Source: a virus
Taxonomy: Duplodnaviria > Caudoviricetes
Strand: one strand, 5' to 3'
IMG/VR virus record: IMGVR_UViG_3300025732_000016
DNA: 64,000 bases
Positions 2,177 through 49,955 of this stretch are shown here, piece after piece. Within the stretch, counting starts at the first letter, position 1. The number at the start of each line of letters is the position of its first letter. The notes below the pieces were generated by a model, which ran no database searches, was not told the origin of the DNA, and saw only the letters and a program-made list of their open reading frames with translations. The position numbers and the translations under genes are program-made.

Positions 2177-3266
2177 TTTCCTTCCTTGACTTTTGGAGTG
2201 CTGATCCGATCACTTGATGCATGTCGTAATACTTGTACTCAGAGAGGCGACCGCCAAAGAGAACGTTTGGAGTATTCTCAGCGATGTCTCGATACTTTCG
2301 ATAGATCTCATTATTCTTTTCGTCGCCGATGGGGTAGTATGGGACCGCGTCCCTGTGCCACTCAGCCGGAAACTCCTTTGTCCAGATCGTTCGCGGAGTC
2401 TTCTCGAGGTCCTGCGGTTGGAAGTACTTGTGTTCAGTGATTCGAGTGTAGGGAACTGCTGCGTCAGTGTAGTTCACTACTGCATTGCCTTGATAATCAC
2501 CGTCCTGTGAGGTGTGCTCGAACTGGAGCGTTCGATAGTCAAGCTCACCGTGAACGTAGTCAAAGTACTCATCGATCTTCCCAGTGAACACGACCTTCTT
2601 GGCCATCCCTTCCCACTTCGTCCGATCCTTGAAGAAGTCCTCTCCAAGAGCGAGGTCACATCCCTGGAGGAGACCCTTGAAGATCTCTGTGTAGCCACCT
2701 ATCGGAATGCCCTGGTATCGGTCATTGAAGTAGTTATCGTCAAAGTTCAAGCGGATCGGAAGACGCTTGATGATGGAGGCTGGGAGATCCTTCGGTTCAC
2801 GCATCCATTGCTTTGTCGTGTAACCGTGAATGAACGTCTCGTAGACTTCACGACCTACCTGTGAGAGGATCCACTCTTCAAGATTGCGGGGATTCTCACA
2901 TGGGACTCGGACTTCTTCAAGCTTCTGTCTGGCTTCTTCGGGCGTTGTCACACCCCAGAGCTGGTGAAGAGTCATCAGGTTGATCGGGAACGAGAAGATC
3001 CTTCCTTTGTAGTTCACCTTTGGGCGATTCACATAATCGTTGAAAGCCGTGAACTGATTCACGAACTTCCAAATCTTCTCATCAGATGTGTGGAAGATGT
3101 GTGGTCCATAGACGTGGACATCAACTCCTTCTCTCTTCTCTGTGTAGCAGTTTCCGCCAATGTGCGGACGCTTGTCAATCACGAGGACAGACTTCGCCTT
3201 GCGTCGAGCCTCATGAGCGAAGACAGAACCGAACAGCCCGGAACCAACAATGATGTAGTCGTACAT
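2166..3266 (-). CDS. glf: UDP-galactopyranose mutase
   Basis: 'YDYIIVGSGLFG', 'HIGGNCY', 'HVYGPHIFHT', 'YYPI', 'GRLSEYKYYDMHQVIGSAL'. Confidence 0.96.
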   Translation of the reverse strand: MYDYIIVGSGLFGSVFAHEARRKAKSVLVIDKRPHIGGNCYTEKREGVDVHVYGPHIFHTSDEKIWKFVNQFTAFNDYVNRPKVNYKGRIFSFPINLMTLHQLWGVTTPEEARQKLEEVRVPCENPRNLEEWILSQVGREVYETFIHGYTTKQWMREPKDLPASIIKRLPIRLNFDDNYFNDRYQGIPIGGYTEIFKGLLQGCDLALGEDFFKDRTKWEGMAKKVVFTGKIDEYFDYVHGELDYRTLQFEHTSQDGDYQGNAVVNYTDAAVPYTRITEHKYFQPQDLEKTPRTIWTKEFPAEWHRDAVPYYPIGDEKNNEIYRKYRDIAENTPNVLFGGRLSEYKYYDMHQVIGSALQKSRKENEL

Positions 3267-41316: not shown

Positions 41317-41421
41317 ATGAAATGATTGCGGCTTTGACCCAGAGCCGCGAACTGGCCGACCTACGATTCGAGCAGGATTGCTGTCAGGATACCTGCGGTT
41401 ACGATCCCTGATCAGGGGCGA

Positions 41422-42009: not shown

Positions 42010-42034
42010 ATTGGTTCCTGTTAGGAACATTGTT

Positions 42035-42063
42035 AATGTAGTCACACCGTCAAAGGTGTACAC
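42035..42063 (-). promoter_or_regulatory. Sigma70-like promoter for the Thr-Ser-Ser tRNA run
   Basis: GTGTAC-N17-TACATT. Confidence 0.5.
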
Positions 42064-42082
42064 ATTGCTCTCAACTTCTTTC

Positions 42083-42205
42083 GGTTCACCAGTTGCTCTC
42101 TGTTGAACCCGGGTCCATGGTAAGGTATATCCTAATCACCTAAACCCGAGTAACACAGAGTATCACAGGGTTCAACGGGTGTCATCGTGGTTTCGGTGTG
42201 GAACC
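42083..42205 (-). ncRNA. Candidate structured ncRNA (family unassigned)
   Basis: Nested helices GGTTC(C)AC/GTGAACC, GTTGAACCC/GGGTTCAAC, GTGATAC/GTGTTAC and GGGTTTA/TGGACCC. The G-U pairs favour the minus strand. Confidence 0.45.
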
Positions 42206-42206
42206 T

Positions 42207-48728: not shown

Positions 48729-48782
48729 AAGTTTTATCCGTCTTTCCGGACCGCCAGACTGGTTATCTCACAATCATTGAAG

Positions 48783-48920: not shown

Positions 48921-48949
48921 AATATAAATCAGGGAACCAGATTGTTCAA
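48921..48949 (-). promoter_or_regulatory. Sigma70-like promoter for the Ile-Arg-Tyr-Lys tRNAs
   Basis: TTGAAC-N17-TATATT. Confidence 0.55.
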
Positions 48950-49257
48950 AGGCTCCGCAACTTTTCGATCAGGACCTTCACGCTCGACTCGGTGGCCCCG
49001 ACAAGCGTGTCAATCCGCTCACCGTTGTGAAACCCGATGACGGTTGGAACGGCCTGCACCTTCATCTTCTGGGAGAACTGCTCACCGCCCTCGATGTCGA
49101 CGTATGCAAAGACGATATCAGGAGTCTCAAAAGAGATCTTCTCGACCTTGGGCTTCAGGAGCTTGCAGGGCATGCACCACGTGGCCCCGAACTGGACGAT
49201 CACGTGAGTGTTGCCGTCGATGAGTTCCTGGATGTTGTCGTCGTTCCGGTTGATCAT
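48946..49257 (-). CDS. Thioredoxin
   Basis: 'QFGATWCMPCK', 'YVDI', 'VQAVPT'. Confidence 0.92.
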   Translation of the reverse strand: MINRNDDNIQELIDGNTHVIVQFGATWCMPCKLLKPKVEKISFETPDIVFAYVDIEGGEQFSQKMKVQAVPTVIGFHNGERIDTLVGATESSVKVLIEKLRSL

Positions 49258-49629: not shown

Positions 49630-49703
49630 TGGAGCGGGCACCGGGATTCGAACCCGGTTATCCAGCTTGGAAGGCTGGTGCACAACCCATATGCCATGCC
49701 CGC
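49630..49703 (-). tRNA. tRNA-Gly(TCC)
   Basis: CCAGC-CTTCCAA-GCTGG; CCA end. Confidence 0.93.
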
Positions 49704-49712
49704 GATTTGAAA

Positions 49713-49807
49713 GAACATGGAGACCCGGAGCTTGTACAGCGTCGGCCAACCCGGTTCGGCTGTGCTCCCCACTCACATGGGATACTGTACACCCGCCGTC
49801 CATGTTC
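49713..49807 (-). ncRNA. Candidate structured ncRNA between tRNA-Arg and tRNA-Gly
   Basis: GAACATGGA/TCCATGTTC encloses TGTACAG/CTGTACA and a CCCAT-GTGA-GTGGG GNRA hairpin. Possible GGAGC/GCTCC pseudoknot. Confidence 0.5.
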
Positions 49808-49811
49808 AAAG

Positions 49812-49888
49812 TGGCGTCCACGACAGGATTCGAACCTGTGACCTATCGCTTAGGAAGCGATTGCTCTATCCAGCTGAGCTACGAGGAC
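49812..49888 (-). tRNA. tRNA-Arg(CCT)
   Basis: ATCGC-TTCCTAA-GCGAT; one acceptor mismatch; CCA end. Confidence 0.92.
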
Positions 49889-49926: not shown

Positions 49927-49955
49927 AATATAATTTACCTGTGAAAACTGGACAA
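49927..49955 (-). promoter_or_regulatory. Sigma70-like promoter for the Arg-ncRNA-Gly-Asn run
   Basis: TTGTCC-N17-TATATT. Confidence 0.55.

Follow-up and report, generated by a model that had tools for sequence, protein, structure and literature searches.

Small stable RNAs have been recognised in phage tRNA operons from species 1 and 2 of phage T4 onwards, and to our knowledge none of them has an assigned function. The two T4 RNAs are reportedly released by tRNA-processing enzymes. The T4 annotation places the start of rnaD 1 nt beyond tRNA-Arg, with rnaC next in line; of the two, rnaC has a tRNA-like T arm at its end, and the fold of rnaD is weak. Y RNAs are also sometimes encoded among phage tRNAs, and in Class I RNAs the closing stem is followed by a conserved (UU)ACAGCAA. 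A further type of clamp on RNA ends is provided by RNase III stalks, such as the rRNA leader-trailer helices and the early sites of T7, in which the stalk is conserved and the interior is exchangeable. In HDV-type folds the strand nearest the 5' end is paired to an internal one, and the strand at the 3' terminus to the one that comes second from the 5' end. Theta ribozymes are HDV-type ribozymes from gut phages that lie beside many different tRNAs, and HDV-like and theta ribozymes have their catalytic C in J4/2 (PMC10879173).

The RNA described here fills a spacer between two tRNA genes in a viral stretch of 64,000 nt (Caudoviricetes; IMG/VR record IMGVR_UViG_3300025732_000016), the whole of which we refer to as the window. 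Its resemblance to T4 rnaC and rnaD (species 1 and 2) is one of context only, each being a small non-tRNA RNA in a tRNA operon, on the same strand as the tRNAs and next to tRNA-Arg. The T4 pair lies at the end of its cluster whereas the spacer RNA lies between two tRNAs, and unlike either T4 RNA it is built as a stalk carrying a three-way junction. A search of the T4 tRNA region with the covariance model of the spacer RNA (R1; cmsearch, filters off) found nothing at rnaC or rnaD, the best hits being short AT-rich hairpins elsewhere. Theta ribozymes resemble the spacer RNA in being compact RNAs other than tRNAs that adjoin tRNA genes in Caudoviricetes, and either could conceivably take part in processing tRNA ends; the spacer RNA differs in being single-copy, in having a fixed context, and in joining its 5'-most to its 3'-most strand with everything else nested. 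It shares with RNase III stalks an interrupted helix of approximately 20 bp clamping the RNA ends within a polycistronic transcript, but its interior junction is conserved just as strictly as the stalk. Like YrlA (RF02553) and the dictyostelid Class I RNAs (RF01414) it is a small RNA closed by a stem of its 5' and 3' ends; unlike them it has no tRNA-like module and no exact ACAGCAA.

Genomic context of the spacer RNA

The spacer is 108 nt long and is located at 49704-49811 on the minus strand; the RNA is numbered 1-108 from 49811 down to 49704, so that RNA position p corresponds to window position 49812 - p. Taken as a small RNA gene, the whole spacer scores 129.5 bits with R1, and there is one copy in the window. 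Directly 5' of it is a tRNA-Arg(CCU) gene with an encoded CCA (49812-49888, minus strand), called by both ARAGORN and the Rfam tRNA model (66.6 bits), and a consensus scan places a sigma70-like promoter (TTGTCC, 17 nt, TATATT; 49927-49955, minus strand) approximately 40 nt upstream of this tRNA. On the 3' side a U-rich tract follows the closing helix P1, and a tRNA-Gly(UCC) gene (49630-49703, minus strand; ARAGORN) starts 9 nt after P1. This is followed by tRNA-Asn, a 91-aa ORF and a thioredoxin gene (48946-49257, minus strand; Pfam PF00085, E = 2e-18). A scan for terminator-like sites found none.

The window contains 19 tRNA genes and a tmRNA (ARAGORN, Rfam), every one of which is on the minus strand, and the other tRNA pairs of the array are separated by gaps of only 4-7 nt (ARAGORN). 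The window also encodes PhoH/PIN proteins, a PrkA-DUF444-SpoVR operon, an ATP-dependent ligase, a non-specific nuclease, the thioredoxin and glycosyltransferases. The relatives of this region are IMG/VR viral contigs.

Homologues and their distribution

The search for homologues began from a neighbouring gene of 139 aa, through which two syntenic IMG/VR contigs with an identical Arg-spacer-Gly arrangement were found; in these the spacer is clearly more conserved than the tRNAs. Three exact-pattern scans of IMG/VR, each using a different block of the RNA, returned six loci on new contigs (five true and one chance match), and JGI metagenomes scanned with a junction pattern yielded 42 loci; R1 was built from seven of the sequences. 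The family comprises 49 true copies scoring 88-136 bits, with 36 distinct sequences and one copy per locus, and the 48 copies beyond the window are from IMG/VR and from lake or marine metagenome contigs. Elsewhere the searches were negative. A core pattern gave one GC-rich chance match (12.5 bits) among 185,579 prokaryote genomes, blastn of the spacer gave one chance match (E=4) among 50,697 deposited phage records, and R1 found no copy among 80 related phage loci sharing the 139-aa gene. By blastn, deposited phages resemble the tRNA region of the window through its tRNAs only, and the RNA is not described in the literature that we searched. The source contigs are mostly lake metagenomes, judging by their names, with one titled as a marine metagenome, and as far as sampled the family is confined to uncultured phages, almost all of them from lakes.

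Wherever flanking sequence is available the RNA occupies the slot between tRNA-Arg(CCU) and tRNA-Gly(UCC), and neither a second copy nor any other context was seen. The upstream gene is tRNA-Arg(CCU) in every locus where ARAGORN called a tRNA there; it lies 0-31 nt from the spacer RNA, which starts 0-4 nt after the CCA in most loci, and six loci have an extra 25-31 nt in this interval. A tRNA-Gly(UCC) gene is present a few nucleotides downstream in all sufficiently long loci but one (L131, which has a weak tRNA in that slot), and starts 3-10 nt after the end of P1. Most homologous loci have -35/-10 or extended -10 boxes 30-45 nt before tRNA-Arg. Because promoter, tRNA-Arg, spacer RNA and tRNA-Gly are kept together across the loci, we regard them as a conserved transcription unit. 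The first-pass annotation of the window had proposed a compact RNA co-transcribed between two tRNAs, and both layout and conservation support a compact structured RNA on the tRNA strand in a promoter-headed unit. In 25 loci, the window among them, a thioredoxin gene lies downstream at a distance of 0.1-2.3 kb (5.1 kb in one locus), and it is the only gene to recur when ORFs around the 49 loci are clustered, the top clusters being spurious ORFs that overlap the spacer RNA itself.

Secondary structure

The minus strand of the spacer has a predicted minimum free energy of -42.9 kcal/mol (RNAfold; z = -2.9) with 1 in 200 shuffles as stable, and the plus strand folds more weakly; the fold z-scores of other family members are modest, at -0.5 to -1.5. 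Comparison across the family used 26 pairs in 37 distinct aligned rows, made up of 36 copies of the RNA and one chance match. Standard pairs occupy 98.1% of cells against 94.3% in shuffles, there are 24 cells with both partners changed against 5.8 expected, and none of 500 shuffles reached the observed covariation score, while slid-alignment controls were only 30-58% paired. RNAalifold, unaided, returns P1, P1b, P2 and P3, and the covariation resides in P1 and P3.

P1 pairs RNA 5-13 (GAACAUGGA; 49799-49807) with RNA 91-99 (UCCAUGUUC; 49713-49721), these and all of the segments below being on the minus strand. A 9-bp closing stem had been drawn at 49713-49807 from the window sequence, and it is recovered with that exact span and with covariation across the 36 distinct homologues: C8-G96 is replaced by U-A in two lineages, a third has the U-G intermediate, and six other pairs show wobble-compatible changes. 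An internal loop, C-R-R (RNA 14-16), in which G15 and G16 change to A as loop positions would, lies between P1 and P1b. The latter consists of CGGG (RNA 17-20; 49792-49795) paired with UCCG (RNA 83-86; 49726-49729); it was found independently by RNAfold and RNAalifold and is invariant. P2 pairs RNA 21-28 (UGUACAGU; 49784-49791) with RNA 72-79 (GCUGUACA; 49733-49740) over 8 bp, as indicated by the alignment and RNAalifold. In the window it takes the form UGUACAG(U) with (G)CUGUACA, 7-8 bp; across the family 100% of its cells are paired and its sequence is constant save for position 79, where A or G can each pair with U21. The 7-bp inner stem of the first-pass annotation is therefore present and fully paired; since P1b and P2 show no variation of the kind seen in P1, they are backed by energy and full pairing rather than by covariation. 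Between P2 and P1b is a 3-nt bulge, R-R-Y (RNA 80-82; 49730-49732), in which all three positions vary. The stalk of P1 (9 bp), P1b (4 bp) and P2 (8 bp) thus has 21 bp, interrupted by a 3x4 loop and the 3-nt bulge, and spans approximately two helical turns.

The stalk is capped by a three-way junction composed of P3, an 8-nt conserved strand, a CYG/CGG helix with an AAC loop, and a variable 6-nt linker. P3 is the hairpin CCCAU-GUGA-GUGGG (RNA 31-44; 49768-49781), and the GUGA tetraloop hairpin reported at first is borne out, with changes on both sides in four of its five pairs, among them U-A to C-G. It behaves as a variable peripheral arm. Its loops across the family are GUGA, GCAA, GUAA, GCGA and GCAG, it is swapped for an unrelated longer hairpin (GCAUCG...CGAUGA) in six loci, and it carries a 13-nt insertion in two. 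P3 length changes among the variants are 8, 9, 11, 12 and 13 nt, and these indels exclude a coding reading of the spacer. The junction strand J3/4 (GAGCACAG) and a mini-helix with its loop, CYG-AAC-CGG-G, together make up RNA 45-62 (49750-49767), for which the IMG/VR contigs retrieved with stem patterns are informative: in IMG/VR copies obtained with 5' or 3' blocks of the RNA, positions 45-62 and 69-72 show a single substitution, G47>A in one contig. Y54 alternates between C-G and U-G pairing with G61. RNA 63-68 (49744-49749) is a freely varying hexanucleotide with six variants in the family, UUGGCC in the window and AAGGCA, ACUGAU, GAGGCC, AUUGAU and AAGACU elsewhere.

Two elements of the fold first proposed do not extend to the family. 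A second hairpin, CAGCC/GGUUG, does fold in the window copy and is peculiar to it, with only C53-G62 and Y54-G61, or alternatively the CYG/CGG triloop helix, persisting in the homologues. When the segment was folded with all 4,096 possible hexamers the observed variants ranked at the 31st-90th percentile and the window's own in the top 3%; an extended P4 hairpin was accordingly rejected as a conserved feature, the observed hexamers stabilising it no better than random ones. The suggested GGAGC/GCUCC pseudoknot is formed by segments that are complementary in the window, but two of the three independent substitutions found there break the pairing (G81>A in three sequences and G47>A in one) and the other, C82>U, is tolerated as a wobble only. 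Variation at all of RNA 80-82, which overlaps the GCUCC, fits an unpaired bulge and argues against the pseudoknot.

The pairs also indicate which strand is functional. G20-U83 and U28-G72 do not vary, U21-G79 is the most frequent version of its pair, and all three would be A-C mismatches on the other strand; the single substitutions in stems are all transitions that keep a wobble on the tRNA strand. We therefore conclude that the tRNA strand is the functional one.

Sequence conservation

Among the 35 loci in which both tRNAs were called, mean pairwise identity is 89% for the spacer RNA, 72% for tRNA-Arg and 73% for tRNA-Gly, the shortfall in the spacer RNA being due mostly to the P3 insertions. 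Pairs of loci whose tRNAs are 47-48% identical still have spacer RNAs that are 92-96% identical. RNA 45-72, except for positions 47, 54 and 63-68, was fixed by the metagenome retrieval pattern, and the unbiased view of these junction positions comes mainly from a few IMG/VR contigs retrieved with stem-only patterns. In the 54 columns that are not fixed by this pattern and lie outside P3 and the hexamer, identity averages 95%, with a minimum of 87% and values up to 100%. The neighbouring thioredoxin, by comparison, averages 53% amino-acid identity between loci, and at many loci blastn aligns the block of tRNAs and spacer RNA only, the flanking coding DNA being too diverged. P3 and the hexamer have diverged freely in the same molecules, and the invariance of the core is for this reason attributed to selection and not to recent transfer. 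Judged by these identities, purifying selection acts much more strongly on the core of the RNA than on the tRNAs and the protein gene beside it.

Comparison with known RNA families

No Rfam 15 family matches the spacer RNA at gathering thresholds (whole window) or at E<=10 (spacer), and none matches it at E<=5 in eight other family members or in L084, so the proposal of a candidate new ncRNA family stands. None of the 19 tRNAs called by ARAGORN in the window falls within 49704-49811 and the Rfam tRNA model (RF00005) has no match there at E<=10 or in the eight other members at E<=5, in agreement with the earlier statement that the RNA is not a cloverleaf. The same holds for its being unlike HDV and theta ribozymes in topology. 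P1 joins the 5'-most and 3'-most strands with the rest nested, and this covariation-backed arrangement excludes the HDV/theta fold; the HDV-type Rfam families have no match on the RNA at E<=10. The single copy and fixed context, unlike those of theta ribozymes, suggest a gene rather than a module.

The hammerhead, twister, twister-sister, pistol, hatchet and hairpin families have no Rfam match in any of nine members (E<=10 or E<=5). A hammerhead was considered because of the CUGAUGA in the commonest hexamer variant and was rejected, as the needed helices and GAAA do not accompany this motif, and it is absent from the other variants. We also considered what we took to be likenesses to SRP RNA or RNase P RNA (AAGGCAGA, GAUGACGC, and UCCGGG-CUCCAU). 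Alignments to Escherichia coli ffs (4.5S) and rnpB are at chance, with 9-100% of shuffles scoring as high, and neither SRP RNA nor RNase P RNA has an Rfam match on the spacer RNA at E<=10.

ACAGCAA occurs eight times in the window, with 7.9 occurrences expected. One of these (41378-41384, minus strand) falls in a hairpin loop closed by GCAGG/CCUGC, with a small lipoprotein-like ORF on one side and the tmRNA gene on the other; it is probably meaningless, the motif count being at chance.

Proposed role and alternative explanations

We give roughly even chances to the reading that the spacer encodes a stable small RNA that is cut out by tRNA-processing enzymes and whose invariant three-way-junction core binds a conserved partner, a proposal drawn from sequence comparison. 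The RNA would be transcribed from the sigma70-like promoter ahead of tRNA-Arg and freed as a discrete, stable species of approximately 95-108 nt during host maturation of the two flanking tRNAs, as the layout and the T4 precedent suggest. RNase P would make the releasing cut at the start of tRNA-Gly, and on the other side RNase E or 3' trimming would act beyond the tRNA-Arg CCA. The RNA would then act in trans, its invariant stalk and junction offering a surface to which a conserved macromolecule binds. The most plausible partners would be a component of tRNA or translation metabolism in the host, or a phage factor for RNA repair or defence evasion. We prefer a trans-acting gene over a mere processing site because the RNA is single-copy, keeps one fixed slot and has its own predicted promoter, because its junction and stem sequences are invariant without compensatory change, and because the other tRNA pairs of the array, 4-7 nt apart, need no such element. 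When the junction strand was tested for pairing with the 19 tRNAs and the tmRNA of the phage itself, none of the 20 tests gave an outlier beyond z = -2.4. By analogy with a broken anticodon loop, P1 could juxtapose the 5'-phosphate and 3'-hydroxyl of the released RNA, and phage RNA ligases could circularise it.

It is possible, if doubtful, that the RNA belongs to a new functional class, one that either is catalytic or binds a universal host component or a small ligand with high affinity; nearly every nucleotide of the stalk and junction would then be needed, which would explain why the RNA is more conserved than the surrounding tRNAs. An unlikely alternative is that it acts in cis, either through its stalk as a place of cutting and stabilisation (for RNase III, for example) that parts tRNA-Arg from tRNA-Gly, or as a new self-cleaving ribozyme that trims the trailer of tRNA-Arg or the leader of tRNA-Gly. 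The tight spacing on both sides (0-4 nt after the CCA in most loci, and 3-10 nt from P1 to tRNA-Gly) and an interrupted stalk of about two helical turns are what such a module might look like, theta ribozymes are a precedent for ribozymes beside phage tRNAs (PMC10879173), and a role in processing or regulating the tRNA-Gly transcript would fit the fixed position equally well. However, the other tRNAs of the array are separated without any such module, there is one copy per genome in one context, and in the six loci with an extra 25-31 nt a cut at the edge of the RNA would not give the 3' end of tRNA-Arg. A processing stalk would moreover need neither an invariant junction core nor invariant stems without compensation, and none of the known self-cleaving classes matches. 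A riboswitch-like sensor of a ligand or factor, in which formation of P1 controls transcription or processing into tRNA-Gly and the downstream genes, would account for the aptamer-like build (a covarying closing helix, a variable peripheral hairpin and an invariant junction), the U-rich tract after P1 and the thioredoxin recurring downstream in 25 loci; we consider it improbable given that no terminator-like site was found, that no alternative pairing is backed by covariation, and that no riboswitch family in Rfam 15 matches. We know of no riboswitches ahead of tRNA genes.

The general design of Y RNAs, in which the 5' and 3' ends form a long stem containing a bulge and an internal loop, is also seen here, and ACAG occurs twice in the RNA (in UACAGUAU and CACAGCYGAA), which would suit a partner of a Ro60-type protein or an RNA with an ACAGCAA handle. 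This is very improbable, as the exact ACAGCAA is absent, YrlA and Class I have no match at E<=10 or E<=5, and no partner gene recurs near the RNA; among 29 window proteins scanned against Pfam there is no TROVE or DUF2828, the only vWA-related match being the DUF444 of the PrkA operon. The copy of the motif in UACAGUAU is paired within P2. Equally remote is an explanation at the level of DNA or of decay, namely that the spacer is a miniature inverted-repeat mobile element, a palindrome bound by a protein, or what is left of a tRNA gene. P1 and P2 are indeed inverted repeats, with TGTACA itself palindromic, AACCGGGUU in the window copy corresponds to the start of the T arm of tRNA-Gly, and near-identity between diverged phages could stem from recent transfer. 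Yet the position is constant, with no second copy or other context seen, and the G-U pairs and wobble-only substitutions reveal RNA constraint on one strand. The strong divergence of P3 and the hexamer beside an undiverged core points to old age plus selection, and not to recent spread or decay. As for a tRNA remnant, the RNA has no tRNA score at all and the match of AACCGGGUU is not kept in the other variants.

The spacer RNA is a well-defined case among phage RNAs of this kind, with its single copy, fixed position, predicted promoter, covariation-supported fold and near-unchanged core. The degree of constraint is typical of catalytic or machinery-binding RNAs, and makes it a good candidate for studying how phages manipulate host tRNA and translation biology. 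The covariance model can be used to annotate a recurrent 'empty' spacer in freshwater phage genomes.

Other features of the tRNA regions

The tRNA-Arg slot in six loci (L084, at 301-377 on the plus strand, and L087, L118, L090, L127 and L101) is occupied by a tRNA-Arg(CCU)-like gene that both ARAGORN and the Rfam tRNA model miss. In the L084 gene (fold z-score -3.9) an acceptor stem of 7 bp, a normal T arm, the loop UUCCUAA and an encoded CCA can be recognised, with only 5 nt in place of the D arm and a variable region of 16 nt, and the gene in these six loci looks like a D-armless tRNA-like phage gene. L084 also has a weak tRNA match (15.3 bits) at 577-664 on the plus strand; the acceptor and D arms of this sequence are normal, it contains an insertion of 41 nt, and it may be an interrupted or intron-bearing tRNA gene. 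A group I intron (RF00028, 58 bits, above the gathering score) is present within the tRNA array of L131, a related phage contig, at 2837-3035 on the plus strand.

Two further spacers in the window are of interest. The one upstream of tRNA-Thr (42010-42206, minus strand) has a predicted folding energy of -64.1 kcal/mol (z = -4.0) and is a second structured-RNA candidate in the same tRNA region. The other, of 54 nt, separates tRNA-Arg(UCU) from tRNA-Ile(UAU) (48729-48782, minus strand) and is 81-87% identical in the four related loci L123, L114, L089 and L093.
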